Below, in pieces: positions 25,365 through 61,588 of a stretch of 64,000 nucleotides of DNA. The notes below the pieces were generated by a model. That model ran no database searches, had not been told where the DNA came from, and saw only the letters and a list, made by a program, of their open reading frames with translations. Made by a program: the position numbers and the translations under genes. Source of the DNA: an uncultured Pseudomonadales bacterium (GTDB taxonomy: Bacteria > Patescibacteriota > Microgenomatia > UBA1400 > MFAQ01). How positions within the stretch are numbered: position 1 is the first letter of the stretch; each line of letters starts with the position of its first letter. The stretch is taken from contig CAYHNG010000001.1 of assembly GCA_964357975.1 (NCBI GenBank), positions 47,007 to 111,006 on the forward strand, written 5' to 3'.

Positions 25365-25389
25365 GATCCCCGCCTTCGCGAGGATGACA
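25365..25389. repeat. Hairpin repeat copy R1 (GATCCCCGCCTTCGCGAGGATGACA), intergenic between the radical SAM and GT2 genes
   Basis: Identical 25-mer to 44896-44920. Forms a UUCG/CUUC-loop hairpin that is more stable on the minus-strand RNA (G-U in place of C-A). Confidence 0.8.
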
Positions 25390-25403
25390 TAGTAGATTAC
25401 TTG

Positions 25404-27035
25404 TTAGTCGCTCAATACATCTCCGTGTTGGCCGAGTTGTTTGGGCGAAAAGTCCATCATGTGTCCGAGAAAGCGCCAGCCGGCCATGAAGAGGAATTTG
25501 ATATCATCCAGATGTCTGATCTCGGTGATTTTTCTTAACATGAATTTGGGACTAAGAAAAGATTTGTAGAGGTCTTGGGTTAGTTCCAACACCTGTTTCT
25601 CGGTAAGTGAAGATTTCATTACCGGCTTTCTCATGTCGTAATCATCGTAGTCTTCTGACAAAAGCCAACCCTTTTCTTTACACTCTTTCCATAGCGGGGT
25701 GCCGGGATAGGGAATCACCACAGTGGCTTGCAAGGTGTCGACATAACCTTTTTCAAAACATTTCTTGGCCAGATCGACCGTGTTCCTGGCATCCTCGTAA
25801 GTTTCCCATGGGTAGCCCATCATAATAGTGAGGTGCGGGTCTAGTCCGCCCTTCTTGGCCATGCGGACACCTTCTTCGATTTGCTCTACCTTAAGCCCTT
25901 TATCGAGATGATCTAAGGTATATTGATTGGCGGACTCCATACCATAAAGGATGAAACGGAAGTTGGCTTTGCCCATTAAATCGTAATGCTCTTGCTTGAG
26001 AGCGTTGAGACGCATATTGCACCCATAGACGACTTTCTTACTGTAGCCGGACTCGATCATCATGTTACAAAAGTCAGTCAGGGGTTTGCCGATCATAAAA
26101 GTACCGGCGTCATCAAAAATTTCCTTAACATGATACTTGTCCACGACATATTTGACTTCATCAAAAAGACGCTGTGGAGTAAACCTGCGGTATGACCCAA
26201 CCGGGTTGATGGTGTGATCCCAAACACAGAAAGTGCAACGATTCCACCAACAGTCACGACCGGAGTACATATAGGTAGCGGGGGTGTACTTGTAGTTGCC
26301 GTTGTAGACCGAATAAAGTTCCCACTTAGTTAAATCACGGTCGACAAAAGGCAACTCGTTTAGATCGTGGGCGATGCTGGGTTTGCCGGAGTTGGCATAA
26401 ACCGCCTTACCCTTTCGCTTGATTGTTTCCACCGGTTTTTGTTTGATCCGCTTGTCACCCATGCGCCACCAAACACCCGCCTCTAAAGGCGTGGGTGGGG
26501 TGAGATCCCTCGACTGCGCTCGGGATGACGAAGTAAGGTGGTCGAGCAAGCTCACAATGACGAAGTCATAATCTCCACCGGTGATCAGGTAGTCGGCTTT
26601 GCTGTGATCCATCATTTCTTCCGGAGTAAAGGTAATGTGATCCCCTACCCAAACCAAAAGGAGTTTAGGAAGTTCTTTTTTGAGAAGCTTGGTGATTTCC
26701 CAATGCTTCTTGATGATCGGAGACTTGGTCTCCACCATCAAAACATCGGGTTTAAATTGTTTTAATTCTTTCAACCACTGCTCAAAAGTCTGCTCCTCCG
26801 CTATACCATCCATCCATTTGACCTTGTAGCCATGAGCAGCTGCATTGGAGGCGGCATAAGCCGGAACCATAGGATAAATGTAGGTCTTGGCGTTGAAGTA
26901 CTGGAACTGACGGTTTTGAGACAGCAGCATGACACCTTTGTCGGAAGGCATGGGAGGGTAGCCTACAACAAGCCTTAAGGGCTTGTTGGTGTTTAGTGCT
27001 AAGGGCTTGGTAACTTTTTTGGTTTTTTTTAACAT
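25404..27035 (-). CDS. B12-binding-domain radical SAM enzyme with a non-canonical Cx4CxxC cluster motif
   Basis: N-terminal Rossmann-like B12 domain. The cluster motif YSGRDCWWNRCTFCV has C-x4-C-x2-C spacing. Carries an in-frame copy of the hairpin repeat, encoding SSSRAQSRDLT in the interdomain linker. Confidence 0.75.
   Translation of the reverse strand: MLKKTKKVTKPLALNTNKPLRLVVGYPPMPSDKGVMLLSQNRQFQYFNAKTYIYPMVPAYAASNAAAHGYKVKWMDGIAEEQTFEQWLKELKQFKPDVLMVETKSPIIKKHWEITKLLKKELPKLLLVWVGDHITFTPEEMMDHSKADYLITGGDYDFVIVSLLDHLTSSSRAQSRDLTPPTPLEAGVWWRMGDKRIKQKPVETIKRKGKAVYANSGKPSIAHDLNELPFVDRDLTKWELYSVYNGNYKYTPATYMYSGRDCWWNRCTFCVWDHTINPVGSYRRFTPQRLFDEVKYVVDKYHVKEIFDDAGTFMIGKPLTDFCNMMIESGYSKKVVYGCNMRLNALKQEHYDLMGKANFRFILYGMESANQYTLDHLDKGLKVEQIEEGVRMAKKGGLDPHLTIMMGYPWETYEDARNTVDLAKKCFEKGYVDTLQATVVIPYPGTPLWKECKEKGWLLSEDYDDYDMRKPVMKSSLTEKQVLELTQDLYKSFLSPKFMLRKITEIRHLDDIKFLFMAGWRFLGHMMDFSPKQLGQHGDVLSD
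26500..26533. repeat. Hairpin repeat copy R2 (GTGAGATccctcgactgcgctcgggATGACGAAG), in-frame inside the radical SAM CDS
   Basis: GTGAGAT and ATGACGA termini shared with R3, R4 and R6. The minus strand encodes SSSRAQSRDLT. Confidence 0.7.
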
Positions 27036-27054
27036 TTATTTTTATGTTAGTAGT

Positions 27055-27088
27055 GTGAGATTCCTCCACTTCGGTCGGAATGACAAGG
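27055..27088. repeat. Hairpin repeat copy R3 (GTGAGATtcctccacttcggtcggaATGACAAGG), intergenic between the ferredoxin and radical SAM genes
   Basis: C(UUCG)G tetraloop hairpin flanked by GTGAGAT and ATGACA; 22 of 27 internal positions match R6. Confidence 0.75.
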
Positions 27089-27089
27089 T

Positions 27090-27356
27090 TTATGGAAAAA
27101 TTTGTTTACCGGAAGAGTCTCTAATAAATATAGCAAGAATGGGACAAGATCTGGCGGCTTCTTTCACTTTCTCCAATGAGTCCCCGTCCGGATCGAGAAT
27201 AATCGCTTTGCCGTCTGTATCTCGCAGAAAAAAGGTTAAGGGTGCAACAATGGAACAAGGACCGGCAGAGATGCACTTGTTTAGATCAACTGTAATAATA
27301 TACCCATCTTTTCGGACTGCTTCGCTTTTATCTTCAGTAGTGTTAACTTGGACCAT
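27090..27356 (-). CDS. Small ferredoxin-like protein (3-Cys Fer4_13/15 type)
   Basis: 88 aa; C-x-x-A-x-x-C ... C-P pattern (KCISAGPCSIVAP ... SCPILAI). TAATG-coupled to the upstream GT2 gene. Confidence 0.55.
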   Translation of the reverse strand: MVQVNTTEDKSEAVRKDGYIITVDLNKCISAGPCSIVAPLTFFLRDTDGKAIILDPDGDSLEKVKEAARSCPILAIFIRDSSGKQIFP

Positions 27357-28399
27357 TATTGTATTAGTTTATCAGTAAACAAGAATCCTTGAAGGAAACG
27401 GACCCCGTACCAAAGATGAGTGATGAAGATAATGGGGATGGAAAGAAGAGTCTGAACGAGGATAGATATCAGATCTCGGTTCTCAGATCTCAGTTTCTTG
27501 TGTTGAACAATAGTGTTGAGGATCCAGAGGGAGTTGAGGGAGAGAATAAGAAAATAGAGAGCAAAAGAGTAGATACCAACACTACGGAGGAGAGTTATTG
27601 GTTGGAGAAATGACAATGGGAGGGAGAGTATCAAAAATAAAAAACCGAAAAGGAGGAGTGTGGGGAGGAAGTAGATGGGCCTGAGGGAAGTTTCCGGGAG
27701 AATGCGAGCAAAAAAACCTCGATGAAGACCGAAGTTACCGTTTTGTCGAAGGTGAGGAAGTAGGATGGGACGACGGTGATGATAGACGATCGACTTCGGT
27801 TCGTAAATAATTTTTTTATTTAGTTTGTGAGTAAGGTCTAAACAAAGTTTGGTATCCTCGCCCGGCCAAAAGTTGGAGTCATAGCCACCAACCTTCATGA
27901 AATCTGTTTTGCGAACAGCCAGATTCATGGAAGGATAATCGTCAACGTACTGTTTTTTACCAGGAAGAAAGCGGTAGGTATATGGACCGGCACCGATGGG
28001 AGACGCCGACGCCCACCCGGAAGCCTCCTCTCGCCAGCTAACTACCTGAGGAGTCACGCCCGGTCCGCCAACCCCAGCAATCTCGGCTTTTTGAAAATGA
28101 GGGACGAGACTGGCTAGCCAACTCTTGCTAGGAAATGCATCGTCATCGATGAAAGCCAAAATCTCTCCTTTGGCCATCTTAGCTCCGGCATCTCGTTTCT
28201 CCGCCGGCCCGACATAATGGCCATATGATTTTTGGCGAAGTTTAGGATAATCCAGATCTACATGGTAGTCGCAGACCAAAATAATTTCGAAGTTTTTGTA
28301 GGTTTGTTTCTCGATGGAGTCAAGACACTCGATCAGATACGGGTTCTTTTTTTTGTAATCGATGACGATGACGGAGACTAGGGGAGGTTTACGGTTCAT
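27356..28399 (-). CDS. Glycosyltransferase family 2 with a C-terminal membrane anchor
   Basis: LVSVIVIDYKKKN...ILAFIDDDAFP, then about four TM helices. Confidence 0.8.
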   Translation of the reverse strand: MNRKPPLVSVIVIDYKKKNPYLIECLDSIEKQTYKNFEIILVCDYHVDLDYPKLRQKSYGHYVGPAEKRDAGAKMAKGEILAFIDDDAFPSKSWLASLVPHFQKAEIAGVGGPGVTPQVVSWREEASGWASASPIGAGPYTYRFLPGKKQYVDDYPSMNLAVRKTDFMKVGGYDSNFWPGEDTKLCLDLTHKLNKKIIYEPKSIVYHHRRPILLPHLRQNGNFGLHRGFFARILPETSLRPIYFLPTLLLFGFLFLILSLPLSFLQPITLLRSVGIYSFALYFLILSLNSLWILNTIVQHKKLRSENRDLISILVQTLLSIPIIFITHLWYGVRFLQGFLFTDKLIQ

Positions 28400-28462
28400 G
28401 GTTATTTGACAAATGTTGATTGTAACTGTATTATCTATTTAGTTAATCTCGCGGATGGGTGT

Positions 28463-29104
28463 TTACACCGGTTCAGCGAGATTTTCGCGTTTTAGCTTCA
28501 CCCAACTGGTTTTATATACCTTGACTTTCTTGGAAATAATACGAAAGAAGTTAGACCTTTTTGTAATTCTCGCTAAATAGCTTCCTGAGACCATGTCAGC
28601 ACAATTTACCGCCCTTTCTCTCTGGCTGTCAACGTGTCTTATCTTTGCGATTCTCGGATATTTACGGAAGATGTATTCATTAAACTCGTTTTGAGATCTC
28701 TCATTGTGGAAATGTCGGTCAAATGTAATCTCCATTTCGGACTTGTTGAATGATTTCATTACTTTGTTGATTAGTTTACTAGCCGCCATCGAATAGTTTA
28801 GAGGGCTATCCTGAACTTTCTTGTTACTCTTGTTTATTTCCAAGACGTAAACTTTAATCTCAAGATTACTAAGCTCCGTCAAATATTTGGTTTTGATATT
28901 ATCACTAGCTTTGTAATACTTTATTTCAGACATTATTTTATGTTTTCTACTTGATGACTTTCTAAGTTTGTTGGCTATTCCCACGAGGTCTCCTTGCTCT
29001 CTTGTTGCTACAGCACCGAGTATAAAATATTTATCTCTAGTGTCCGGTAATGTCCCCGACTCATCAATAAAGATATATATTTTCTTCTTGTGAGCAGGTG
29101 TCAT
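28463..29104 (-). CDS. DUF3800-family protein
   Basis: N-terminal IYIFIDESG motif characteristic of DUF3800. ATGA overlap with the upstream GT2 gene. Confidence 0.5.
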   Translation of the reverse strand: MTPAHKKKIYIFIDESGTLPDTRDKYFILGAVATREQGDLVGIANKLRKSSSRKHKIMSEIKYYKASDNIKTKYLTELSNLEIKVYVLEINKSNKKVQDSPLNYSMAASKLINKVMKSFNKSEMEITFDRHFHNERSQNEFNEYIFRKYPRIAKIRHVDSQRERAVNCADMVSGSYLARITKRSNFFRIISKKVKVYKTSWVKLKRENLAEPV

Positions 29105-29961
29105 TCTGTTTTTGAATGGTAGCGGAGTTTAAGATTGGGATCTGATTCCCAGTGGTCTGAGCCACCATCGTCGTAATAACGAAGAATGTAAGTTCGATAA
29201 ATAATGGCGAAATAGTCGATGAAATAATTCCTCACTGATGACAGATCGACGTTACTGGCAAAGTTGTGAGTGATCTCCACCGGAGATTCATAAATTTTCT
29301 TGAAGCCAAGGTGGTTGGCGACAGTAAGAATTTCCAGATCAAAAGCCCAGCGCTTGACGATGAGGCGAGGAAGAACTTCGACCAGAACATCTCGACTAAA
29401 GACTTTAAGGCCTGTTTGGGTATCGGAGACATTCAGGCCAAAAACAAACTTGGTGGCCTTTTGGACGAGATAGGAGAGGAGTTTTCTTCGCCACGGATAG
29501 AACACCTTACTGGCGTGATGGCGTTTACTGCCAATAATGATATCCGCCTCGTACCACTTCATGTGTTCCAGTGCCAAGCCGATTCCTTTTGCATTTAAAT
29601 CGTTGCCCGCGTCGATAAAAGCGATTGTTCCGCCTTTGGCGCGGGCCATGCCATAACGCACCGCATAACCCTTGCCCTTGTTTACCTCATAGGTATAGAT
29701 TCGGCAGTTCTTGGCTTTGAACGACTTGGCCAGCTCTGCCGTTTTGTCCTTACTGTTTTTTTGTCCGTCAACAACGCAAATTAACTCATATGGACGATTC
29801 AGAAGATCTAGATAAAGCTTAATGGTAGAAAGATCGTTGTAAATAGTTTTGCAGTTATATGCCGGGACAATTACCGAGAGGAGAGAAGGATCAACTAAGC
29901 CGTGTGATTTAATTTTCTTTTTGGCCTTTTTGGGCATGAGGAGATTATAATCGATATACAC
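29101..29961 (-). CDS. GT2 polyprenol-phosphate glycosyltransferase (Dpm1/GtrB-like)
   Basis: SVIVPAYN, VVDGQKNSKDKT, GKGYAVRYGMARAKGGTIAFIDAGNDL, SDTQTGLKVFSRDVL fit the Dpm1/GtrB family. Start is the GTG at 29961, or alternatively the ATG at 29937. Confidence 0.7.
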   Translation of the reverse strand: MYIDYNLLMPKKAKKKIKSHGLVDPSLLSVIVPAYNCKTIYNDLSTIKLYLDLLNRPYELICVVDGQKNSKDKTAELAKSFKAKNCRIYTYEVNKGKGYAVRYGMARAKGGTIAFIDAGNDLNAKGIGLALEHMKWYEADIIIGSKRHHASKVFYPWRRKLLSYLVQKATKFVFGLNVSDTQTGLKVFSRDVLVEVLPRLIVKRWAFDLEILTVANHLGFKKIYESPVEITHNFASNVDLSSVRNYFIDYFAIIYRTYILRYYDDGGSDHWESDPNLKLRYHSKTE

Positions 29962-29970
29962 GTTGATGGA

Positions 29971-30018
29971 GTGAGATTGCCACGGTTCGGAGTACCGAAA
30001 CTCGCAATGACGAAAAGG
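29971..30018. repeat. Hairpin repeat copy R4 (GTGAGATtgccacGGTTCGGagtaCCGAAACtcgcaATGACGAAAAGG), intergenic between the flippase and Dpm1-like genes
   Basis: Same GTGAGAT and ATGACGA termini around a longer GGUUCGG/CCGAAAC hairpin. Lies immediately upstream of the GTG start at 29961. Confidence 0.7.
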
Positions 30019-30019
30019 G

Positions 30020-31270
30020 TTATTGGTTTTTGGTGTGGGAGAAGAGGAAAAATAAAAGAGAGGAGACTAGGCAAAGTTGGATAGCGAAGTTGGACCAGAT
30101 GACGAGCGAGAAGGAATCACGAAAAACATAAAAAAGTAATGGCTGGACTACTGTGGCGGCCAGAAGAAAGAGATTGGCACGAGGACGGCCGGTGGCCATA
30201 AGGTAAGCAACCAGAAACTGACCAAGAGCCAGGAAAACCATAGTGAAAGCAAAAATAGAGAGAAAGGGAGCGGCCTCCAGATAAGCGGCACCGGAAAGTA
30301 TCCGAATAATCAGAGTCGGGAACAAACCAAAAATGCTCGCGCCGATAAAACCAAAAAGGACGATCACAGCCCCTAGCTTGACAAAAATTGTTTTGGCCGA
30401 ACCAAAAGCCGCATGGCGATGAGAAGCCATCGGAAGAACCAAAGAGATAATGGGGGTTAATCCAAAAAGAATCATCCGTCCCAAAATGGACAAGGAAGAA
30501 TAGATACCGGAGAGATGAGGGTTGAACAAGGCTCGGACCATGAGGACATCGGTAGAAATCAGCGACATGGTACCGAGCGCATAAATAAAGCTATAGCCCA
30601 TAAAGCCGCCCAAAGAAAAGTGAGGAGAATTCTTTATGACGATCTTCGGATAAACTGAAGGACGAATGTTGAAGAAAATTATTATGGAAGTGACGACGCT
30701 ACCCAAAAGCTGACCAATGACGGCGCCGGTGGCTCCAAAGCCAAATTTGATGAGTAGAATGGAAAAAACAATGGTCAGAAAAATACTGACTAAACCCAAG
30801 AAGGTTTGGAAAACAAACCTTTGGTAAGCCACCAAATAAGAACCGATGATAGTTTGGTAGAGGGAAATAAAGACACTAATTCCTAAAACAATAAAGGCAA
30901 GTGAGTGGGCCTTGAAGATAAAGGATAAAGGCCCGGACAAAAGAATCAGAGCAAGTCCCAAAAAAACAGCGATGGGGGTAACGGTGCGAAGGAGGTAATG
31001 AAAAAAGAGATTGATGGAAGTTCTGTCGTCTTTTCCTTTGAACTCAGCAACGTATTTAGTGATCACGGTAGCGATAGTGCCGGTAGGAATGCCTAAGAGA
31101 TACGTCAGGGAAAGATAAGACAAGAATTCACCGTACTCTGCCGGAGCCAGGAAGCGAAGAAGAATGAGGTGGAAAAAATAGCGAAAAACACTTAAGGCAA
31201 AACTACCAAAATAAAAGATGGCGGTGGACCGAGCTGTAGGTGTAGAAATCGCACGAAAAATTCGCTTCAT
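30020..31270 (-). CDS. Oligosaccharide/polysaccharide flippase (Wzx-like, MOP superfamily)
   Basis: 416 aa, about 12 TM helices; PST-family layout. Confidence 0.65.
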   Translation of the reverse strand: MKRIFRAISTPTARSTAIFYFGSFALSVFRYFFHLILLRFLAPAEYGEFLSYLSLTYLLGIPTGTIATVITKYVAEFKGKDDRTSINLFFHYLLRTVTPIAVFLGLALILLSGPLSFIFKAHSLAFIVLGISVFISLYQTIIGSYLVAYQRFVFQTFLGLVSIFLTIVFSILLIKFGFGATGAVIGQLLGSVVTSIIIFFNIRPSVYPKIVIKNSPHFSLGGFMGYSFIYALGTMSLISTDVLMVRALFNPHLSGIYSSLSILGRMILFGLTPIISLVLPMASHRHAAFGSAKTIFVKLGAVIVLFGFIGASIFGLFPTLIIRILSGAAYLEAAPFLSIFAFTMVFLALGQFLVAYLMATGRPRANLFLLAATVVQPLLFYVFRDSFSLVIWSNFAIQLCLVSSLLFFLFSHTKNQ

Positions 31271-34117: not shown

Positions 34118-34138
34118 TAGAATTAGTTTAGCATTCAG

Positions 34139-36495: not shown

Positions 36496-38177
36496 TACGG
36501 TTTTGTCACTCCATTTCTAAGTCGAGAAATTACACGCTCTTCCCCCATTACTTGCATCATTTCGTATAGATCTGGTGTCATGGTCTTTCCAGATAGCGCA
36601 ATGCGAAGGACCATCGCTACGTCGCCAAGATGACCTCTGTATCCTTGTGTATTACTCTTGTATTCTTTCATAGATGACGCATACCCAAGTGATAAGCACA
36701 CCACTTTTAGTTTCTCAAACCAGATCTCTTTTGTGTCTGAATAGTGATAGCTGGTCAGAAATTTCTTGATAATTTCTTTGACTTTCAATGGGTCGGTAAT
36801 GTTTTCGGTGGTAATTGGAAAAACTGCTTGATCAAAAATTTCATCGTAGAAGAATCCGAACAAGTCAGGTATCTGAGACCATTGTGAGATATCTTTTCTA
36901 TTTTTATCTCCTTCGCGCTCAATGTTGAGAATGCTAATTGAATACTCTTTATCCATTGTAAATATGCGATGAAATTCAGAGTTGAACTTTTGAGACCAAT
37001 CACATACCAATGAATATATCTCATCGACCTTCATGGTAGAAATTTCTTGCTTGCAGATATCCAAGAACTTAACCATATCAAACAGGGCCCCAGATGATCC
37101 CATGTGGACAAGGGTGAGGGGGAAATCCAAAAGCGAGGTGTGTGGATTCTCCTTCCTCCATTTTTCAAATCCGGAATCGGCGATGTTCAACACATAAGCT
37201 CTGACTGCTTTTGCGGGAATACCAAGTTTAAGATAATAAGAAGTATCAGCCTCCGGATCTTTTCTCTTGCTAAGCTTTCTTTTGGTGGTCTCTCCGTCCA
37301 TTTTCATGACTGGGGATAAATGTCCGAATTTCGGTCGATCCCAACCAAAAGCATCAATGATCTGCAGATGAAGTGGTAACGAAGGTAGCCATTCATCGCC
37401 ACGAATTACTTGGTTAACCCCCTGCAGATGATCGTCAACCATAGCGGCCAAATGATAGACAGGTAATCCTAGTCCTGTTGAAGCAGACTTCATTAAGACA
37501 TAGTCGGTATCATTTCCCGGAAGTGTAACTCGACCCTTTATAGAGTCGGTAAAAGTGGAGACAGTGAAATTCAGTGGTGAGCGGAAGCGGATGGCAAAGG
37601 TTTCTCCAGCGGCTAACTTGTCTTTTATGTTGTCGAGAGAAAGGTTTCGGCATGCGGCGTACTTACCGTAATACCCCGTTCTTTCTTTGTTGGAAACTTG
37701 AGTCTGTCGAGCTAATTCAAGTTTCTCGGCATTACAGAAACAAGGATAGGCCATACCCCTTTTTAGTAGGGTTTTGATGGCCGATAAGTAGACTTCCTGT
37801 CGATGACTTTGGATGTATGGTCCATATTGACCGACCTCCTCGTCTCCTAATATGGGTCCTTCGGAATATTGGACACCAAATTCCCTTAAAGCAGTGATTA
37901 TTGTTTTTATTCCGCCAACAACTTCCCTATTTTTATCTGTATCTTCGATCCTTAAAAAAAAGACACCGCTACTCAAGTGAGCAATTTGCTCATTCACCAT
38001 CGAGGTGAAGATCAGTCCAAAGTGAGCAAAACCGGTAGGGCTGGGAGCGACACGAACCACCAGAGCACCTTCTGGTAGCTTCCTTTTTGGATAACGGAGC
38101 TCGATCTCTGAGAGTTCGAGGGTGGATTCCGGAACAAGCAGCTTCGCTAATTCAGTGTTGGTTAATTTGTCTACCAT
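36495..38177 (-). CDS. gltX: Glutamate--tRNA ligase
   Basis: VVRVAPSPTGFAHFG (HIGH-type) and KLSKRK (KMSKS) motifs; 560 aa. Confidence 0.9.
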   Translation of the reverse strand: MVDKLTNTELAKLLVPESTLELSEIELRYPKRKLPEGALVVRVAPSPTGFAHFGLIFTSMVNEQIAHLSSGVFFLRIEDTDKNREVVGGIKTIITALREFGVQYSEGPILGDEEVGQYGPYIQSHRQEVYLSAIKTLLKRGMAYPCFCNAEKLELARQTQVSNKERTGYYGKYAACRNLSLDNIKDKLAAGETFAIRFRSPLNFTVSTFTDSIKGRVTLPGNDTDYVLMKSASTGLGLPVYHLAAMVDDHLQGVNQVIRGDEWLPSLPLHLQIIDAFGWDRPKFGHLSPVMKMDGETTKRKLSKRKDPEADTSYYLKLGIPAKAVRAYVLNIADSGFEKWRKENPHTSLLDFPLTLVHMGSSGALFDMVKFLDICKQEISTMKVDEIYSLVCDWSQKFNSEFHRIFTMDKEYSISILNIEREGDKNRKDISQWSQIPDLFGFFYDEIFDQAVFPITTENITDPLKVKEIIKKFLTSYHYSDTKEIWFEKLKVVCLSLGYASSMKEYKSNTQGYRGHLGDVAMVLRIALSGKTMTPDLYEMMQVMGEERVISRLRNGVTKP

Positions 38178-42053: not shown

Positions 42054-43708
42054 TAAGGTTTGGTTTTGATGACCCGAAAGAGAATGTGATGATCTGGAGT
42101 TTCGATTTGTCTAAACAGATCCACGTTAGGTCCGGTAATATCGAACTGATTGTTGATATTTCCCTCAGATCCGATAAAGAGAGTGTCTTTTTGAGTCATC
42201 ATGTCGGAAGAGCCAAACTGGTGGAACTCAACACTACCGACTTTGTCCACTTTTCCGACGTCCAAACCGCCGCTAATAAAATCGTTATTTTTTTGATAAG
42301 TAGCCGGGTCATATGCGGTGTAAAAAACGTAATAGATATATGGCTGACCGTAGACATCGGTAAAGACAACTTTCTTGGCCGGATGGTCTTTAATAATTTG
42401 AACTACCTGCTTGTAGCCGTAGTTGAACTCTTTGGAAAAGACAGTCTGGGAATGAAAAAAGTACACATCAAAGACGTATATTGCGCATAGGGTGTAGATA
42501 CCGGCAATGAGTGCGAAGAATATTTTTGAATTTGTATAAAGATAATAGATACCCAGACCAGCAATTATAGAGAGTGGAACAACCATAAAGAGAGCTCTGA
42601 CGGTGGAGAACTCAGCCAAAGTCAGTGAGGCGGGAATGGGCGAGATAAGAAGCAGTCCGAGAATTAATGCCGTTGTTCTGTCCGGGGTGTCATGACTACC
42701 TGGAGAAAGGTTTTTGACTAGCCAGATAAAACCTAGAACTAACCAGATGAACTCTAAAGGATTGAGCGCTCCCAATCCGGGAAGGTGTCCCCTTTCGGAA
42801 ACAATGGGGCCTTCGTAGAAGAGGACTTCGGGTGAAAAGTGATACAGATAACGGGAGAGAACAAGCCTAGTTGAAAGTTCTTTTTGGTTATGGAAAAGAT
42901 TTAAGGAGGTAGAATTTTGATTGTCTATCTCCCTTGTTATTTGGGGTATCCCCGGTTTGTAGTTGAAGATGCTCAGAGTTGTAAGCCGATTACCGGCGCT
43001 GCCAAATACAGAACCGAAGAAAATCCAGAGACCAAACAGAATAAATGGAAAAAGCGACAACAGCTTTTTGGGCTTTAGATATGGAGTAAAACTAGACCAA
43101 AATTCTTTCCAGTAAATAACAAGAAAAAGTAGAAAGACCAGAGGAGTTAAAAGTTTGGCCGCTTGGTACATGGCCAACGAGAGACAAGCCAATAGCAAAG
43201 AGGGGTAGAGAGCTGATTTTCCCTTTAGAAACCGGAGAAAATAGTAAAGAGCAAAAATGGTCAGCGTGGTGAAAACGTTTACTTCCCAAGCCCCGTGACC
43301 AAAGTGCACCGCCCACGGAGAAATAGCGAGGGCCAGAGCCGCAAAAGAACCTGGTTTGTGGGTGGATTTGGTGGAGAAAATTTCGTTAGTGAGAAGATAG
43401 ATGCCGAAGATGGCGAGAATGCCGGCAAGAGCGCTAGGGAAACGAACTGCAAATTCATTGAGACCAAAGATGGCCACCGAGGGGACCGCAAGATAAATAT
43501 AAGCACCTGGTTTGTAATCTCCAAAACTCTTGAAGACTAAGGGCAAGAAAGCGCCGTGTTCATCCCGCCCGGTCTTCAGCAGGGAGTAGGCGTTGTAACC
43601 GATGGCCGCCTCGTCCCAAGTGAGCCCGTTTGGGACGGACGACAATTGCCACAAACGAAGAAACGTTCCTAGTAGTAGGGCAATGATCAAAAGAATATAT
43701 TTCTTCAT
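42053..43708 (-). CDS. PMT/GT39-family GT-C glycosyltransferase, tandem paralog 2
   Basis: GLTWDEAAIGYNAYSLLKTGRDEHG...FKSFGDYKPGAYIYL; divergent C-terminal domain; TAATG coupling. Confidence 0.75.
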   Translation of the reverse strand: MKKYILLIIALLLGTFLRLWQLSSVPNGLTWDEAAIGYNAYSLLKTGRDEHGAFLPLVFKSFGDYKPGAYIYLAVPSVAIFGLNEFAVRFPSALAGILAIFGIYLLTNEIFSTKSTHKPGSFAALALAISPWAVHFGHGAWEVNVFTTLTIFALYYFLRFLKGKSALYPSLLLACLSLAMYQAAKLLTPLVFLLFLVIYWKEFWSSFTPYLKPKKLLSLFPFILFGLWIFFGSVFGSAGNRLTTLSIFNYKPGIPQITREIDNQNSTSLNLFHNQKELSTRLVLSRYLYHFSPEVLFYEGPIVSERGHLPGLGALNPLEFIWLVLGFIWLVKNLSPGSHDTPDRTTALILGLLLISPIPASLTLAEFSTVRALFMVVPLSIIAGLGIYYLYTNSKIFFALIAGIYTLCAIYVFDVYFFHSQTVFSKEFNYGYKQVVQIIKDHPAKKVVFTDVYGQPYIYYVFYTAYDPATYQKNNDFISGGLDVGKVDKVGSVEFHQFGSSDMMTQKDTLFIGSEGNINNQFDITGPNVDLFRQIETPDHHILFRVIKTKP

Positions 43709-45432
43709 GGAATAGAAGTAATTATAAACGCCGGAGACCCGTCTAAGTAATTCACCGTCTTAATGACATGGGCGTTGACCGGGACGTGACCCGCAGAAGT
43801 AATCAAGAGGCTTCTCTGTGTGGAGATCTCTCCTCCACTCTCCAGAGGAAGAGTCTTGATGGAAGTGACCGGAATCTGCCAATCGTTGACAAAATAAACA
43901 TTGTCTATCTTATCCGTCCAGTACCAATCCGATTTTTGGAAACGAATATTGTCTTTGTTTGGCTGAACAATTTTCGGCTCTATCCGATCAAAGAAGGCGT
44001 AAAAAATATGCGGCTCTCCGAAACGTTTGGTGATAAAAAAGCGATCGTATTCGTGCCGATGATCTTGGACATAGGTCATTACTTCCGCGTAGCCAAATTG
44101 CCAGGACGCAGAATAGGTAGTAGCATAATTCCCAAAATACTGTCTAAGGTAAAACCCGAAGGAGACACCAATCCACAGAGCCAACAAAATCAGAGAGAGT
44201 CTAGTAAATTTGTGAGGAATAAACCTCAACAGCCGGGATAAACCCAGACCGGCAAAAATAATGATGGCCGGGATCATAGGATTTGGACGGAGTGCTTGCG
44301 GAGGATCGATGGTCAGACTGGCCGCGACTGGGGAAAGGAGTAACCAAGCATAGAGGAATTTTAGAGATTCGGAACCTCGCAATAACGACAGGTGTGATAA
44401 AAAACCAAGAAGAGCCAGTAAGAAGACGGGGAGAGTTAAAAGGTTTTGGCCGGGAATGGCAAACTGGAACTGGGCCCCCCATTGTTGGGAGAAAAACTGA
44501 GGTGAGAAATAGCCGATATAGTTCTTGGTAAAAGTAGTGAAAAAATAAACAGGACGGTTATAAACCAATTTAGAGACGAGTGGACCCAGAGAACTTTGAG
44601 ACCTTTGCTCCCCAATTTGAAAAACAGTGGCCGGTGAAAGAATCTTGAGCTTTTCATAACGAGCCGTACCTGCCCCAAGAAAGACCTGATATATGACTAG
44701 CCCAGAGAAAAGGAGTGCGAGAACAAGAGAGGTGATTAGTGCAAAGTGGTTGGTGCGAGGTGCACGAAGATTGGGACGAAAAATAAGAAAAGAGACCACC
44801 ACGAGCAAAGGCACAAAGACGCGGGCAGTGTTGTAGGTATGCAGAGAGAGGCCTAACAGTATAACGGAGGGGAGTAAAGAGGTTTTTGTTTGGTGGATCC
44901 CCGCCTTCGCGAGGATGACACTATCGGAACTGTGGAAGAATTTTAGTAAGAAGTAGAAGCCGAAGATTATTAAAGTAAGAGATAGATTGGCTTCTAAGGC
45001 CGGGCGAGAGATGAAGAAATGCCAGGGAGAAATGGTGAGGAGAAGCGCAGTAATTAGTGCGAAGTGTTTGGTTTTTTGAGAAAAAAGCTCGCGGGTTAGA
45101 AAATAAATTCCCGGAATGGCAAGAGTGCCGGCGAGAGCAGAGATAAATCGAACCGAAAAAGTACTAAGACCAAAAAGCCAGACAGGAATGGTGGTGAGAT
45201 AAATATATAAAGGTAGCTTGTAATCCCCGAAGGCTCGAAAGATTAGAGGAAACCTAACTCCCCACTCGTCTCTCCCGGTGAGCAAAATGGAATAAGCATT
45301 GTACCCATGACTCGCTTCATCCCAATTCAAGGCGACGGGAAAAGCGTCTAATTTCCAAAAGCGGAGTAGACCACCAAGCAAGGTGAACAAAAACAGCAGT
45401 AATAGTGGCCGATTATTAATAATGGACTTCAT
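43705..45432 (-). CDS. PMT/GT39-family GT-C glycosyltransferase, tandem paralog 3
   Basis: ALNWDEASHGYNAYSILLTGRDEWG...FRAFGDYKLPLYIYL. Carries an in-frame copy of the 25-nt repeat, encoding SVILAKAGIH in a loop. Confidence 0.75.
   Translation of the reverse strand: MKSIINNRPLLLLFLFTLLGGLLRFWKLDAFPVALNWDEASHGYNAYSILLTGRDEWGVRFPLIFRAFGDYKLPLYIYLTTIPVWLFGLSTFSVRFISALAGTLAIPGIYFLTRELFSQKTKHFALITALLLTISPWHFFISRPALEANLSLTLIIFGFYFLLKFFHSSDSVILAKAGIHQTKTSLLPSVILLGLSLHTYNTARVFVPLLVVVSFLIFRPNLRAPRTNHFALITSLVLALLFSGLVIYQVFLGAGTARYEKLKILSPATVFQIGEQRSQSSLGPLVSKLVYNRPVYFFTTFTKNYIGYFSPQFFSQQWGAQFQFAIPGQNLLTLPVFLLALLGFLSHLSLLRGSESLKFLYAWLLLSPVAASLTIDPPQALRPNPMIPAIIIFAGLGLSRLLRFIPHKFTRLSLILLALWIGVSFGFYLRQYFGNYATTYSASWQFGYAEVMTYVQDHRHEYDRFFITKRFGEPHIFYAFFDRIEPKIVQPNKDNIRFQKSDWYWTDKIDNVYFVNDWQIPVTSIKTLPLESGGEISTQRSLLITSAGHVPVNAHVIKTVNYLDGSPAFIITSIP
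44896..44920. repeat. Hairpin repeat copy R5 (identical 25-mer to R1), in-frame inside PMT paralog 3
   Basis: Exact 25/25 match to 25365-25389. Encodes SVILAKAGIH in an inter-helix loop of the 43705-45432 protein. Confidence 0.8.
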
Positions 45433-56557: not shown

Positions 56558-56614
56558 CCTGCCTAAAGTATATCAGGAGGTGGAATGGTTTAGGCCACTT
56601 AACTAATGAAGGTT

Positions 56615-57523
56615 TTAGATTGACAAGAAATCAAGCACCCTACTCAGCAGGCTTTGCTTGGACGCCAATGTAAATCCGGATACCCCAGACACCTTAACTT
56701 CTGTAGGAATTGTGACAGTAAATAATCCGAGTAATTTTTGAACCATAACACCGTCAATTAGATACAAAACCTGTCCGTTTTCAACAACAAGTTCTAATCG
56801 TTCCAGCGAACCGGATGGCGTGACACGAAAGTTTAGATCATCTGAAACCAACTTGACAGCTTCCTCAGGGAGAATCTTGACCTCAAACTCCTTTCCCTCT
56901 GACTCGACAAAAATCTGTTGAGTTTTCGGGTCTATGTTTAGTGATAACTCTGTATGAACAGTGGTACTGCCTTGAGTGATCTCTATCGAGCTATCATCCG
57001 GGCTATTTTTGAAACTGACCACACCGTGTTCAATTTCCATCTCTATCTCTTTATCCTCTATTTCTTCGGTTTCACCAGACTCACTAGCGACCAATATTTT
57101 CATACTACTTTCGCTTTGAATCTTGATTTGTTCAATACTTTCTTGCTTCTGCTCCTTGTCTTCCTCTTCGATCTTTTTGACTATTTCACTATTAGTTTCT
57201 CTGATTTTTTGTTCTTCCTCGTCATTCTTTTTGAGTTGCTCCCTAACTCTTTCGATCTCTTTTTTGCCCGCTTCTTTTTGCTTTTCTTCTTCAATTTGCT
57301 CCTGCTCTTCTACCACTTCATTTTGTTCTTCAGCCTCCTTCGGCTCTTGATTTTCATCCCGTTCCACATCTCCTGCCTTATCGTCTTCATCCCCTAACAC
57401 AGAAGGTGAAGATTGGGTAATGTTTCCATTTAAGTCGATTCTGATTAAAGCGTAAACTGGTTTGGATACAAAGACGACGAATAAAGCGGTTAATATTAAT
57501 GGGATAAGAGATTTGTTTGTCAT
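56615..57523 (-). CDS. Secreted or membrane-anchored protein with a Glu/Lys/Gln-rich low-complexity (coiled-coil-like) region
   Basis: Signal-anchor MTNKSLIPLILTALFVVFVSKPVYA, then a roughly 120-aa EEQ/EK-rich repeat region and a C-terminal beta-rich domain. Confidence 0.6.
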   Translation of the reverse strand: MTNKSLIPLILTALFVVFVSKPVYALIRIDLNGNITQSSPSVLGDEDDKAGDVERDENQEPKEAEEQNEVVEEQEQIEEEKQKEAGKKEIERVREQLKKNDEEEQKIRETNSEIVKKIEEEDKEQKQESIEQIKIQSESSMKILVASESGETEEIEDKEIEMEIEHGVVSFKNSPDDSSIEITQGSTTVHTELSLNIDPKTQQIFVESEGKEFEVKILPEEAVKLVSDDLNFRVTPSGSLERLELVVENGQVLYLIDGVMVQKLLGLFTVTIPTEVKVSGVSGFTLASKQSLLSRVLDFLSI

Positions 57524-57730
57524 GTAGTCATGTTAGCACGATAACCAAAAAGGCGACGATATTGACTATACAACCACGCTCTCCTTTTGAATCCTCTCAA
57601 TTAAGTCACCTCTGAGAAATCTCACACGTCATCGCCCAAAGATATCATAAGTTGATGGACTGGCTCCCCTCCTCCTAATAACTACACATGGACTATAATT
57701 GAGAGGTGATTGTAATTACCCCATATTGAG

Positions 57731-59986
57731 ATGAAAAGAATACTCAGGTTTTGGCCCTTCTTGGTTTTTGTGATTGCTTGTTTTGTTTATTATTGGCGAG
57801 TATTTTTGAAGGGGGATGTCCCCTTTCCGGGAGACCTAATGGTTGGAGCCTACCTGCCCTGGCTGGAGAACAAGTGGGGCTTCCCTACCGGTGTGCCGGT
57901 AAAAAACCCCTTAATATCGGATATTTTTTCGCAGTTCTATATGTGGAAGAGTTTGGTGGCCGAATCGTGGCGACACCTCCAAATTCCTCTGTGGAATCCC
58001 TTCTCGTATTCCGGGTACCCTTTGATGGCTAATTTCCATTCCGGCGCATTTTATCCGCTGGGTTTTCTCTATCTACTACTGGGAGATATTAAGGGTTGGG
58101 ATTTTCTGGTGGTACTACCTTCGCTGGCTACCGCTATCACGATGTATTTATATCTCCGACAAATTAAAGTCAAGAAGGTTGGAGCGGTGGCCGGTGGCAT
58201 TATTTATGCCTACTCCGGCTTTGCTATTAGCTGGGCCCAGTTTGTGACCGCTGCCCATGCCATGATCTGGATGCCCTTGATCTTTATTGTGTTGGAAAAA
58301 TTTTTCGACTCCAAAAAAACCCACTATCTGTACTATCTACCCCTGATCTTCTTTCTACTGATTACCTCAGGACACTTCCAGATAATGGTCTATATCACAG
58401 TGTTGACTGTAATCTATTTTGCCTGGAAATGGATGGAGGCCAAAGACTATAAATTGTTTCTGGCGACCATCGTCCCCGGACTGCTGACACTAGGGCTAGC
58501 AGCTTTTCAGATGTTACCCACATTGGAACTAACCAAATACGGGCTGAGGTCGGTAGAAAACTATATTGCCGGATATAACTACGGTTTACTGCCTATAAAG
58601 TATTTGACTACTTTGATTGCGCCTGATTATTTTGGTAACCCCGCAACAGGAAACTTCTTTGGAGTCTTCAACTATCATGAAGCCATTTTTTACACGGGAG
58701 TTTTAACGGTTTTCTGTTTTGTTCTGTCTCTTTTTCTCTATAAATCCAATAAATATGTCAGATTCTTCCTCTTCGCTACAATAATCGCCTTTCTATTCGG
58801 CTTTGACACGCCGCTCGGAAAAGCAGTTTACACCTTTAACGTCCCGGGTTTGTCGACCAGTGCGGCAGGTAGAATAGCCGTGATCTTTTCTATGAGTCTG
58901 GCGGTATTGTCGGGCATCGTTTTGTCTAACTTAGAAAAGATTAGTTTTAATAAAATATTGTTTACTATCGGAATTATTGGTTTGGCCTACTCAACAATTT
59001 ATTACTTGGCTCGTTTTACCGACGGAATATTGCTGTCTCCCAATAATCCCGGTATGCTTCTGGCTCAGAGAAGAGCTGTAACTTTAAGAAATTTGATTTT
59101 ACCCGGTGCTTTTGTCGGCCTGTATTCGCTGATTTTTCTCTTGGCTAAAAAGTGGAAAGTTCTGACCGGTCTGCTGATAGTGGTAATTTGTCTGGAAATG
59201 TTTAGATTTGGTTGGAAGTATATTCCGTTTGTGCCGGAAAGAATTGTTTACCCCGATACGCCAGTGATTTCCTTTTTAAAAGAAAAGGCAGAAGCGGAAG
59301 TCTTTAGAATCGATCGGGAAAGAGCAGAGATCATGCCACCGGCTACTTGGATGCAGTACCGCTTTATGAGCCCTTCCGGATACGATCCGATGGCTATAAA
59401 AGACTATGCAAGCGCTTATCAGGAGAAAATAAACGGAAACTTTAGTGGTCAAGTAGGAAGATACTCGGAGCTGGAAAGATACGATTCGAAGGCGTTGGGT
59501 GATTTTAACGTTAAGTATTTGTTGGTGATTAAGAGAGATAAGGTTGGTAAACTTGGGGGGGATAACATTAACTATTCGATAAATCAAAAGGAGTGGAAAA
59601 AGGTTTTTGAAAGTAGTGCCACAGCAATTCTGGAAAATATATACTATCAACCCAGAGCTAGGTACTTGGGTGAAGCAGGTGGTGGTATAACGATCACCTC
59701 CTATACTCCAAACACCATTAAACTTTCCTACCTTGATGGGGCAAATAAAACCTTATTGCTAGCCGATACCTGGTATCCAGGTTGGAAGGCGTTCGTAAAT
59801 AACAAAGAAGTAGAAATTGAAAAATGCGAAGGTATTTTCCGATGTATTAAACTTACCGACAAAGTAGGTGAAGTGGTGTTTGATTATCAACCGGCCAGCT
59901 TTTGGCTGGGACTCAAGATTAGCATAGTCAGCGCGCTACTCACTCTGGTCGCACTATTTAGAACAAGGAGCCATCAGGCGGACTGA
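57731..59986 (+). CDS. YfhO-like large polytopic membrane protein (GT-C-type glycosyltransferase family)
   Basis: 751 aa: about 13 N-terminal TM helices, a roughly 240-aa extracytoplasmic domain and a final C-terminal TM helix, which is YfhO-type topology. Its 3' end overlaps the converging gene by 33 nt. Confidence 0.45.
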   Translation: MKRILRFWPFLVFVIACFVYYWRVFLKGDVPFPGDLMVGAYLPWLENKWGFPTGVPVKNPLISDIFSQFYMWKSLVAESWRHLQIPLWNPFSYSGYPLMANFHSGAFYPLGFLYLLLGDIKGWDFLVVLPSLATAITMYLYLRQIKVKKVGAVAGGIIYAYSGFAISWAQFVTAAHAMIWMPLIFIVLEKFFDSKKTHYLYYLPLIFFLLITSGHFQIMVYITVLTVIYFAWKWMEAKDYKLFLATIVPGLLTLGLAAFQMLPTLELTKYGLRSVENYIAGYNYGLLPIKYLTTLIAPDYFGNPATGNFFGVFNYHEAIFYTGVLTVFCFVLSLFLYKSNKYVRFFLFATIIAFLFGFDTPLGKAVYTFNVPGLSTSAAGRIAVIFSMSLAVLSGIVLSNLEKISFNKILFTIGIIGLAYSTIYYLARFTDGILLSPNNPGMLLAQRRAVTLRNLILPGAFVGLYSLIFLLAKKWKVLTGLLIVVICLEMFRFGWKYIPFVPERIVYPDTPVISFLKEKAEAEVFRIDRERAEIMPPATWMQYRFMSPSGYDPMAIKDYASAYQEKINGNFSGQVGRYSELERYDSKALGDFNVKYLLVIKRDKVGKLGGDNINYSINQKEWKKVFESSATAILENIYYQPRARYLGEAGGGITITSYTPNTIKLSYLDGANKTLLLADTWYPGWKAFVNNKEVEIEKCEGIFRCIKLTDKVGEVVFDYQPASFWLGLKISIVSALLTLVALFRTRSHQAD

Positions 59987-61588
59987 GGCATGCCAGGGGA
60001 AGACTTTTTCTTTGACGAGACAGAGTTTCGAGAAATTACCTAACCAAGCTTGTGTTCTAATAGGCATATCCATATCCTCTTCGATGATTAGAAAGGTGAA
60101 AGCTTGTGAACCAGCATCCCTCTTGTTGGTCCAGATTTTATCGACATCTCGGATATATTCCGGTTGACCGGGTAAATAAGCTGTTTCGATGGGCTCGTAA
60201 CCATATTTCCAATTGCCATACCACCAGAAAAGATGATTGTATGGAAAATCGTAAACGGAAGGAAGATAGCTGTAAACTTTAAAGCCCTGACCATTCGCGT
60301 TTTGATAAACCCAATCAAGGGCCGCAATTTCGTTCCTCATATTACTTCGATCATCCGAGGGTTTCCCGGCTACGTCTCGTGTGTAATCCCATTGAGACTT
60401 AAGGGAGTAATAAATCAGTATTCCAACAAGAAGGCCGATGAAAACCTTAAAAACAATGGCCTTCCTTTCCCAGAGGTAATCCAAAAAGCATCCAAAAAAT
60501 ATCACCAGAGGAACCGAGAGACCCAATGTATACCATTCCTTAAGCTTTTGAGGGAAGAGAAGATAAAAGATGGCGGAAAATACCATGAACCAGAAAGAAA
60601 GCGACCAGGTTTTCATCCCGGTGTACATTGATTTTTTAACAGAGAATGATAAGAAAATAAAGATAACCAAACTGAGAAGATAGAGGTAGGGCACGTAATT
60701 CGGAGGTAAATGGGTAGAACGGATAACTAATAGCTGAAAATGATCCCAGCGCTGAGCTAACTTTTCGGCAAAATTAATTTTCTCTCCGAGCATGGTGCCT
60801 TGTCCGGAGAATTCTCCCAGTAGAAGTTTCGTCATTATAAAGCCGTGTTTGAATTCAAATAGAACTTGAGGCAGAAGGGTGATGCCAAAACCAACAACTA
60901 GAGGAGTGGTACTTTTAAGTGGAGTGAGATCTCTCCACTTCGGTCGAGATGACGAGAATAATAAATACAGGAGGGCGAAAGGAAAAAACAAAATTCCGAA
61001 AGCGGCCTCGATTTGCATGGCCAGTCCGGAGACTAGACCGAGCACAAGAAGAGTTATTGGTGCGGGGTTATTAGATTTAGGTGCGAGGTGATTGGTGCGA
61101 AGGGCAAAAGCGAAAACGGCAAAATAGAGAGTGGTGAAAAAAACCATCGAATTGGCGTTCCAAAAATATCTGGCGGTATTAAAGCCTGTGGGCATGAGAA
61201 ACAAAAGGATGGAAACGATGGTGGCCAACGTAGGACGTTCTTTTCTGAGGACTAACCAGAGAGCGATGACCAAGAGTTGATACCAAAGGATTTGCCAGTA
61301 AACCACAAAGGCCGGGTTTCCACCGCCGAGAACGAAGGGAGTGAGGTTAAAGTAATACCAAAAAGGACCGAGAAGAACTCCATTGATACTGGTGGTGGGG
61401 CCGACTAGCCGCGGTGTATGAGTAACCACCATGTGGCGCATATCGACCATGTCTCTTCCTTGATCTGTAGTAAAAGGAAAATTGTAATTGGCGACCTCCA
61501 TGATTTTTAATACTGAGCTTGCCAACAGAATCACGAGGAAAAGAATCAGGAGGATATTTTTTTTCAAAACATCGTACACCCGTTTCAT
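59954..61588 (-). CDS. ArnT/GT83-like GT-C membrane glycosyltransferase
   Basis: FPFTTDQGRDMVDMRHMVVTHTPRLVGPTTSINGVLLGPFWYYF. Carries an in-frame copy of the hairpin repeat, encoding SSSRPKWRDLT in a loop. Confidence 0.6.
   Translation of the reverse strand: MKRVYDVLKKNILLILFLVILLASSVLKIMEVANYNFPFTTDQGRDMVDMRHMVVTHTPRLVGPTTSINGVLLGPFWYYFNLTPFVLGGGNPAFVVYWQILWYQLLVIALWLVLRKERPTLATIVSILLFLMPTGFNTARYFWNANSMVFFTTLYFAVFAFALRTNHLAPKSNNPAPITLLVLGLVSGLAMQIEAAFGILFFPFALLYLLFSSSRPKWRDLTPLKSTTPLVVGFGITLLPQVLFEFKHGFIMTKLLLGEFSGQGTMLGEKINFAEKLAQRWDHFQLLVIRSTHLPPNYVPYLYLLSLVIFIFLSFSVKKSMYTGMKTWSLSFWFMVFSAIFYLLFPQKLKEWYTLGLSVPLVIFFGCFLDYLWERKAIVFKVFIGLLVGILIYYSLKSQWDYTRDVAGKPSDDRSNMRNEIAALDWVYQNANGQGFKVYSYLPSVYDFPYNHLFWWYGNWKYGYEPIETAYLPGQPEYIRDVDKIWTNKRDAGSQAFTFLIIEEDMDMPIRTQAWLGNFSKLCLVKEKVFPWHASVRLMAPCSK
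60924..60956. repeat. Hairpin repeat copy R6 (GTGAGATctctccacttcggtcgagATGACGAG), in-frame inside the ArnT-like CDS
   Basis: About 27 of 33 positions identical to R2; the minus strand encodes SSSRPKWRDLT. Confidence 0.75.

Follow-up and report, generated by a model that had tools for sequence, protein, structure and literature searches.

What are the short hairpins that recur six times in one stretch of bacterial DNA, three times between genes and three times in frame within protein-coding sequence? The question is posed by a 64-kb segment of contig CAYHNG010000001.1 from an uncultured bacterium, hereafter the window (64,000 nucleotides [nt] in full), which contains the six sites, R1 to R6. 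The answer that we favor, with a probability of about 0.85, is that these sites are copies of a CGTC-tagged repetitive extragenic palindromic (REP) sequence, equivalent to the Ssn-related motifs (SRMs), of which the neisserial form is NTS, in a Collierbacteria-like genome of the Candidate Phyla Radiation (CPR), and that they are acted upon by an Ssn-type nuclease as single-stranded DNA (ssDNA). The repeat family was described in 2013 and a partner enzyme was proposed in 2025, the candidate partner being the Ssn GIY-YIG ssDNA nuclease. New here are the CPR as a host lineage, a GA...GA/CTCAC subfamily that crosses phyla and is linked to GIY-YIG genes, and recurrent in-frame gains at a single protein loop, with a clean junction of 27 nt.

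Anatomy, kinship, and distribution of the repeat

All six copies lie on the minus strand, the coding strand of the local genes, and follow the layout (C/T)GTC-AT-NNN...N'N'N'-AT-C. The base of the stem is AT/AT (A-T, T-A) in 6/6 copies, with GTC before the stem and C after it, again in 6/6; the complete tag is CGTC in R2, R4, and R6 and TGTC in R1, R3, and R5. R1 (25363..25389, minus strand), TGTC-AT-CCTCGC-GAAG-GCGGGG-AT-CTA, is intergenic, occupying the spacer between the stop codon of a radical SAM (rSAM) gene and the start of a GT2 gene, whereas R5 (44894..44920, minus), TGTC-AT-CCTCGC-GAAG-GCGGGG-AT-CCA, is located in frame within a PMT_2 family glycosyltransferase gene and encodes the peptide (S)VILAKAGIH. 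Both belong to a subtype with a perfect 8-bp stem closed by a 4-nt GAAG loop, and the 25-mer GATCCCCGCCTTCGCGAGGATGACA is common to the two without a mismatch (25365-25389 and 44896-44920).

The second subtype comprises R2, R3, R4, and R6, in which a 5-bp outer stem is followed by GA...GA, that is, tandem G.A mismatches, and by a small or irregular interior. R2 (26496..26530, minus), CGTC-AT-CCC-GA-GCGCAGTC-GA-GGG-AT-CTCACCCCA, is an in-frame unit in the linker of a B12-radical-SAM gene and encodes SSSRAQSRDLTPP; R6 (60920..60954, minus), CGTC-AT-CTC-GA-CCGAAGTG-GA-GAG-AT-CTCACTCCA, is in frame within the gene for a PMT_2/GT39-like membrane protein and encodes SSSRPKWRDLTP. The other two are intergenic: R3 (27051..27085, minus), TGTC-AT-TCC-GA-CCGAAGTG-GA-GGA-AT-CTCACACTA, lies between a ferredoxin stop codon and the rSAM start, and R4 (29967..30012, minus), CGTC-AT-TGC-GA-GTTTCGGTACTCCGAACC-GTG-GCA-AT-CTCACTCCA, has a 416-aa polysaccharide-synthesis gene on one side and a GT2 gene on the other. 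In each of the intergenic copies R1, R3, and R4, the upstream stop codon is 2-15 nt away. The 3' tail is CCA in R5 and CTA in R1, and in the second subtype it is CTC extended to CTCACYCCA.

Much of the initial annotation, which had been made from the letters of this stretch, holds at this level: all six copies that it listed are present in one shared orientation; the identical 25-mers, one intergenic (R1) and one inside a PMT gene (R5), are seen in the window sequence; three copies (R2, R5, R6) do sit in long minus-strand open reading frames (ORFs) with the remainder intergenic; and the translations agree that R2 and R6 share a reading frame (SSSRAQSRDLT and SSSRPKWRDLT) and that R5 uses another (VILAKAGIH). 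Its account of the unit needs amendment. The unit extends further than described, including on the minus strand a 5' (C/T)GTC tag and a 3' tail CTCACYCCA, and what had been taken as a UUCG loop corresponds by complementarity to the GAA/GAAG loop of the CGTC-tagged strand. Likewise, the minus-strand hairpin is the more stable one, as had been stated, in R1, R4, R5, and R6, but in R3 the two strands tie, and in R2 the plus strand has the advantage.

The paired bases are conserved as pairs. Among the window copies, the outer three pairs vary yet stay complementary (TCC/GGA, CTC/GAG, CCC/GGG, and TGC/GCA), and in R3 and R6 the inner 12 nt (GACCGAAGTGGA) are identical while two compensatory pair swaps distinguish the outer stems (TCC/GGA vs. 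CTC/GAG). Covariation, which the initial annotation had proposed to examine, is evident in a set of 57 copies from many genomes (alignment A1) that were picked by their flanks alone: the covariation score was 0.333 compared with 0.144 +/- 0.019 in shuffles, a value reached in 0/500 shuffles, slid controls were all lower, and 76.9% of the positions counted were paired vs. 64.8% after shuffling. The AT/AT pairs belonged to the selection pattern, and their invariance in A1 is therefore no independent evidence. At least three pairs were closed in 41/106 and 34/118 flank-only matches, with ~6 expected, whereas a viral control yielded 9/193 vs. 10 expected. The stems also include G-T/G-U pairs. Folding with DNA parameters gave -6.3 kcal/mol and a z-score of -3.3 for R1 and a z-score of -3.0 for R5, the only copies that clearly outdid shuffles; within the window, the loose pattern GAGAT-N14-34-ATGAC is weakly enriched (8 matches vs. 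2.85 expected). Many of the 57 copies contain NNN-GAG...CGA-N'N'N' or NNN-GAC...GGA-N'N'N', and because of this recurrence among copies selected by flanks only, the GA...GA subtype is a recurrent architecture rather than the product of simple decay. By sequence, R2, R3, R4, and R6 represent a related subfamily (NNN-GA...GA-N'N'N', tail CTCAC) present in many phyla. A kink-turn or C/D-box-like reading of the GAGAT/ATGAC flanks was dropped on inspection, as the G.A pairs fall in registers incompatible with it.

CGTC-tagged REPs were defined by Di Nocera, De Gregorio and Rocco (2013, BMC Genomics 14:522; PMC3733652), who distinguished families CGTC-1 to CGTC-4, as an unpaired CGTC tag (variants TGTC and CCTC), an 8-9-bp stem opening with AT, a 4-5-nt loop, and a short, unpaired 3' tail that is mostly CCA; in Neisseria, CGTC-1 is dRS3, and in R. 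conorii CGTC-1 and CGTC-4 are RPE-6 and RPE-4, respectively. The same survey placed intragenic in-frame units on record, linked no transposase gene to these REPs, argued for many REPs that they are situated immediately 3' of ORFs and transcribed, and, as its authors note, let bulged stem variants escape (PMC3733652). The window copies share with this family the tag, the A-T/T-A stem start, and the CCA-like tail, as well as dispersal in several copies, six of them within 64 kb, several variants per genome, in-frame intragenic units, and the lack of a linked transposase. R1 and R5 are an exact fit to CGTC-1 (8-bp stem, 4-nt loop, CCA-like tail). In contrast, R2, R3, R4, and R6 have an outer stem of 5 bp followed inward by G.A mismatches or bulges, a spacing of 12-29 nt between the two arms of that stem, and a longer tail, CTCACYCCA, and all window copies are singletons in one orientation, whereas the published families are mostly head-to-head dimers. 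CPR/Patescibacteria lay outside the phyla covered by that survey.

The neisserial repeat has since been redefined as NTS, CGTCATTCCCGCGMAVGCGGGAATCYRG, and generalized to SRMs across phyla (Chenal et al. 2025, Nat Commun 16:2388; PMC11893778). The published SRM pattern, HGTCWYN(0-2)YYVSBRHN(0-5)WNVSBRGN(0-2)RNCYNB (PMC11893778), is matched exactly by R1 and R5, with 0.2 matches expected per window. The window copies resemble NTS/SRM in their CGTCAT-hairpin-ATC consensus with an oriented 5' flank and in clustering within an envelope- or surface-related gene region, as NTS do in Neisseria. They differ in that half of them are intragenic, compared with 2% of NTS in N. meningitidis (PMC11893778). 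The window copies extend the system to the CPR, a lineage absent from both defining surveys (the 2013 genomes and the RefSeq representatives); here, where genomes are very small and intergenic space is scant, the proportion of in-frame copies inside genes is unusually high.

Two further families of tagged or palindromic repeats invite comparison. GTAG REPs with their REP-associated tyrosine transposase (RAYT), known as REPtrons, are similarly short tagged palindromes and probably serve as ssDNA hairpins for a small dedicated enzyme whose gene they flank; the differences are the GTAG rather than CGTC tag and an HUH Y1 transposase rather than a GIY-YIG nuclease, and no RAYT was found here. The initial annotation had likened the element to Rickettsia palindromic elements (RPEs), which were reportedly described by Ogata et al. 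in 2000. The classic RPE-1 spans ~100-150 bp, in contrast to the 27-46 nt of the window units, and RPEs are likened here by description, not by sequence. Like the window copies, RPEs are palindromic repeats tolerated in frame in unrelated protein-coding genes, and the comparison is more than an analogy, given that RPE-4 and RPE-6, together with dRS3, belong to the same CGTC superfamily (PMC3733652).

Copies beyond the window, which the initial annotation had anticipated, were found in many genomes. A scan of a 596-Gb genome collection with the flanks of the R4 subtype, CGTCATTGCGA-N8-30-GGCAATCTCAC (22 specified bases), returned at least 117 loci vs. ~1.6 expected by chance according to our own arithmetic. 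The sources include Collierbacteria, Daviesbacteria, Doudnabacteria, and other Patescibacteria along with Bacteroidota, Chloroflexota, Gamma-, Alpha-, and Deltaproteobacteria, Methylomirabilis, Spirochaetes, Planctomycetota, Elusimicrobia, Omnitrophota, Clostridia, and others; in a Candidatus Collierbacteria contig (L150), the core is identical to that of R4. A metagenome scan with the CPR-type tail added 119 loci, several of them sharing aquifer samples with contigs L001 and L004, and a general hairpin scan detected 326 units in 859 kb of genome loci vs. 23 in shuffles. In 1 Mb of viral contigs, the general scan found no enrichment (31 units vs. 35 in shuffles), and among 120 matches in viral contigs to the flanks alone (CGTCATN{14,40}ATCTCACYCCA), 5/120 closed a hairpin, which is the chance level and shows the flanks by themselves to be unspecific. 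Relative to the local coding strand in CPR-type loci, 204 copies have the same orientation and 89 the opposite one, and ~26-29% of copies in CPR loci are intragenic vs. 17% in other phyla, by a crude ORF-span criterion and before correction for false positives.

Several candidates were set aside. A seventh copy at 36577-36615 on the plus strand was rejected for its location within the conserved anticodon-binding domain of glutamyl-tRNA synthetase, and weak scan matches at 9006, 14216, 20737, and 29100 were taken as chance. Six Saccharibacteria matches to the 22-base pattern, with NVIATPVVAGNLTS (L127, L129, L163, L167, L205, and L240; e.g., L127 2260-2295) lie inside a conserved ORF (...FALDNVIATPVVAGNLTSNHQ...) and change at synonymous-looking positions; they were treated as conserved coding sequence, being either a coincidence or an old repeat copy that now evolves as coding sequence.

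Filled and empty sites in related genomes

Mobility is indicated by the occurrence of one and the same variant at unrelated loci (R1 and R5) and in separate genomes (R4 and L150), and by insertion polymorphism at orthologous sites in relatives. Contig L001, which encodes P0001, the closest ortholog of the R2 host (91% identity), is syntenic with the window and is devoid of R1, R2, R3, and R4. At the R1 site, only 2 nt separate the rSAM and GT2 genes in L001. At the R2 site, P0001 reads DHLSKG-TNLEGG, compared with DHLT-SSSRAQSRDLTPP-TPLEAG in the window protein, and ~114 of 120 radical-SAM orthologs, including those of L331 and P0001/L001, have no insert. The orthologous R2 copy is present in L002, whereas L003 and L359 carry a different, TGC-type copy at this site, and L004 carries a tandem pair. 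The R3 site is empty in L001 and L002, with a different (TGC-type) copy in the same spacer of L003, and the R4 site is empty in L001, L308, and L360. Relatives have up to five units in 6.2 kb (L003), the window six in 64 kb. L003 also encodes toxin-antitoxin-like genes (Gp49/HTH_3 and AbiEii) around the radical-SAM gene, at 612-1268 and 3337-4228, which the window does not have.

The loop that accommodates R6 has been filled repeatedly. Most orthologs lack any insert there, the outcome of a check on the SSSRxxxRDLT peptide that the initial annotation had proposed for relatives of both the R2 and the R6 host, but at least 13 orthologs carry other repeat-derived peptides (CHSGLDPESIK, CHSRPDRESIK, SFRAKPRNL, SSSLRRTVGWQSIK, and others). 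On a neighbor-joining tree of the R6-host orthologs built without the insert region, the insert bearers are polyphyletic, which implies at least six separate gains at this loop. Moreover, sister taxa read the repeat in different frames at the same position, SSSR..RDLT in the window protein and CHSR..ESIK in P0121, and these frames are not interconvertible by point substitutions. A clean junction is provided by L367 (P0130, filled) and L368 (P0133, empty), which differ at the loop by exactly 27 nt, TGTCATTCCCGACCTGATCGGGAATCC, corresponding to one repeat unit consisting of tag, hairpin, and tail. There is no evident target-site duplication at this junction, where the flanks are ~70-75% identical and a duplication of 1-3 bp could escape notice.

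In an all-against-all megablast of 240 loci at >=88% identity, no clean repeat indels were found, the gaps being N-runs or large indels. In the same material, L268 and L282 (99.4% identical) differ by a tandem duplication, 29 nt long, of AAGGAGGTGATCCATCCGCACCTTCCAGT, which is complementary to the 16S rRNA 3' end; it might be an assembly artifact.

How in-frame copies can be accommodated is suggested by their composition. Read in the sense direction, the conserved flanks are free of stop codons in all frames, so that a frame-keeping insert merely adds ~9-13 residues; in the antisense orientation, the flanks include TGA (in GTGAGAT and in ATGAC). In annotation, stereotyped peptides such as SSSR..RDLT, VILAKAGIH, CHSGLDPESIK, and similar ones are to be recognized as repeat-derived. 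The comparative material furthermore offers testable junctions: filled and empty orthologous sites, the 27-nt junction, and the gains, variants, and frames at one site.

Ssn-type GIY-YIG genes and competing explanations

In Neisseria, SsnA is a 94-aa GIY-YIG protein, the gene of which is typically flanked by the motif; it binds the hairpin and cuts upstream of it, acting on ssDNA and on the tagged strand only, with no action on RNA (PMC11893778). The trinucleotide that precedes the palindrome governs cleavage, and for binding no base counts more than the C that follows it (PMC11893778). The same motif-gene-motif arrangement around ~95-aa GIY-YIG genes was found here in CPR relatives and in three further phyla. 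In the latter, a single-domain GIY-YIG gene of ~95 aa has the R4-type motif as its immediate neighbor, oriented the same way: in a member of Dehalococcoidia (L186) the motif stands on both sides of the gene, and the other two cases are a deltaproteobacterium (L168) and a metagenome-assembled genome of Bacteroidetes (L161). In the CPR-type contig L261, a GIY-YIG gene is embedded in SRMs, including an exact NTS-like unit, TGTCATTCCCGCGAAGGCGGGAATCCAG, and in L264, from a sample shared with L001, a TGC-type unit with the CPR tail is positioned 30 nt upstream of a GIY-YIG start, the ORF being cut by the contig end. The closest named homologs of the L261 protein come from Candidatus Roizmanbacteria and the Patescibacteria group (97 aa, PF01541), and the Roizmanbacteria genes (L362-L366) are themselves flanked by R1/R5-like hairpins, e.g., GTCATCCCCTCGAAGGAGGGGATCCAG.

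Some of these loci have further peculiarities. In L186 (740-1420, minus strand), the stop codon of the Ssn-like gene falls within an inverted repeat unit (TCGTGAGATTGCTTCGCTCCGCTCGCAA...), and three direct units precede the gene, two of which contain an internal duplication (AGGAGCGACGTC AGGAGCGACGTG). An IS3-type transposase pair (HTH_Tnp_1 and rve) is located immediately upstream of the Ssn-like gene in L363-L365 (~1425-2629; in L365, 819-2023) and is absent from the otherwise identical L362. Many CPR Ssn-like proteins are encoded on very short contigs (0.5-2.5 kb), which is expected if the genes are embedded in repeats, because repeats around them would break assemblies.

We propose that the window genome likewise encodes, elsewhere than in the segment at hand, a small single-domain GIY-YIG endonuclease of the Ssn type that would act on the copies. 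In this scheme, the tagged (minus) strand would fold when the DNA becomes single-stranded, during replication, repair, or DNA uptake; the nuclease would recognize the hairpin and nick just upstream of the tag; tag, hairpin, and tail would then be copied as a block to new places; and copies would persist in intergenic spacers and permissive protein loops, any benefit to the cell being likewise conjectural. How CGTC REPs spread has been an open question since 2013, as no transposase is linked to them. A bolder version, which we regard as doubtful, is that the units in the CPR undergo active, repeated copying into a small set of permissive loops, always the same ones, in enzymes of envelope glycosylation, as an exact block without target duplication. 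If true, repeated copying into the same loop would imply a site-selective, ssDNA-based mechanism, possibly initiated by Ssn and homing-like, and would provide a first concrete handle on the movement of CGTC REPs as well as a source of sequence variation in surface-modifying enzymes.

Several observations weigh against the assignment of the six sites to an Ssn-served REP family. R2, R3, R4, and R6 fail the SRM pattern, in its hairpin part, and R2, R3, and R6 fold no better than shuffled sequence with nearest-neighbor DNA parameters. A probe and hidden Markov model search covering the 64-kb window, contigs L001-L005, and the 16 named CPR genome loci detected no GIY-YIG/Ssn gene; there was no transposase either among the scanned ORFs of the window or in those contigs and loci. 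The GIY-YIG proteins match Pfam GIY-YIG and, weakly, UPF0213 (PDB 1zg2), whereas the Ssn-defining CDD family is cd10448; NCBIfam returned only sub-threshold matches to group-I-intron endonucleases for the Ssn-like proteins. The R5 site in the syntenic contig L277 is without the repeat, but the loop is too diverged to count as a clean empty site. Finally, the role shown for Ssn in Neisseria is the modulation of transformation, not the copying or moving of repeats.

The explanation that comes closest to competing, though we consider it improbable, is that the copies act mainly as RNA in polycistronic minus-strand messages, as a stabilizer, processing site, or attenuator, with spread being secondary. 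The orientation of the six copies, all sense to the surrounding genes, fits such a role, as do the 204:89 bias in CPR-type loci, the G-T/G-U pairs in the stems, the closeness of R1, R3, and R4 to the upstream stop codons, and the published argument that many REPs are transcribed just 3' of ORFs (PMC3733652). The sense bias, however, can also stem from the antisense TGA stop codons and from strand-specific exposure of ssDNA. As RNA, R2, R3, and R6 form weak hairpins (-6 to -8 kcal/mol), no Rfam 15 family reaches the gathering threshold in the window, and no copy is accompanied by a terminator-like T-run; 11 terminator-like sites were identified at 24800-30600, none coinciding with R1, R3, or R4. 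What is conserved, instead, is the tag, which is unpaired, and the C that follows the stem, both of them ssDNA determinants of a nuclease that in Neisseria is inactive on RNA (PMC11893778).

The remaining explanations fare worse still. Small, dispersed, palindromic copies with presence/absence polymorphism would also be produced by a classical miniature transposon, whether a miniature inverted-repeat transposable element or a GTAG-type REP that depends for its movement on a transposase of the RAYT/IS200 family or of the DDE type; yet the tag is CGTC/TGTC and not GTAG, there are no terminal inverted repeats beyond the hairpin, the clean junction lacks an evident target-site duplication, and neither the scanned window ORFs nor the published CGTC REPs (PMC3733652) come with a transposase, which makes this origin very unlikely. 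The view that the shared sequence reflects coincidence or a conserved peptide motif, rather than a nucleotide element, suits one set of matches, the six Saccharibacteria loci with NVIATPVVAGNLTS. For the six copies of the window, it is refuted: three copies are intergenic, two reading frames are used, orthologs lack the peptides, and the stem bases covary, so that conservation lies at the nucleotide and not the protein level, as the initial annotation had argued.

Host genes and their neighborhood

The R2 host (25404..27035, minus strand) is a B12-binding radical SAM enzyme (Pfam PF02310 and PF04055) with orthologs in WWE3, Roizmanbacteria, and the Patescibacteria group. R2 occupies residues 168-179, after the B12-binding match (52-153) and before that to Radical_SAM (260-423), and the gene is bracketed by R3 upstream and R1 downstream in a repeat-gene-repeat arrangement. 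The R5 host (43705..45432, minus) is a PMT_2 family glycosyltransferase (Pfam PF13231). The R6 host (59954..61588, minus) is a PMT_2/GT39-like membrane protein with no Pfam match of its own but with orthologs that match PF13231; its nearest named orthologs are from Candidatus Collierbacteria (79% identity), which identifies the window as part of a Collierbacteria-like CPR genome.

Nearly all genes of the window are on the minus strand. A long series of paralogous genes for PMT_2/GT39-like membrane glycosyltransferases of ~550 aa each, mainly on the minus strand, extends from 32714 to 54877, and around it are GT2 genes, two B12-radical-SAM genes (16192-17772 and 25404-27035), an asparagine-synthase-like gene, and a YfhO gene (57731-59986). 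Together, these genes probably constitute a large envelope-glycosylation island, a prediction derived from a Pfam scan of part of the ORFs and, for the rest, from ORF size and the table of synteny with L001. A tRNA scan of the window returned none, and GC/AT skew, dominated by coding bias, was uninformative as to the replication strand. Apart from the island, a 178-aa ORF at 3204-3740 on the minus strand encodes a staphylococcal-nuclease (SNase) domain (E 2e-25), which is unrelated to the GIY-YIG family.

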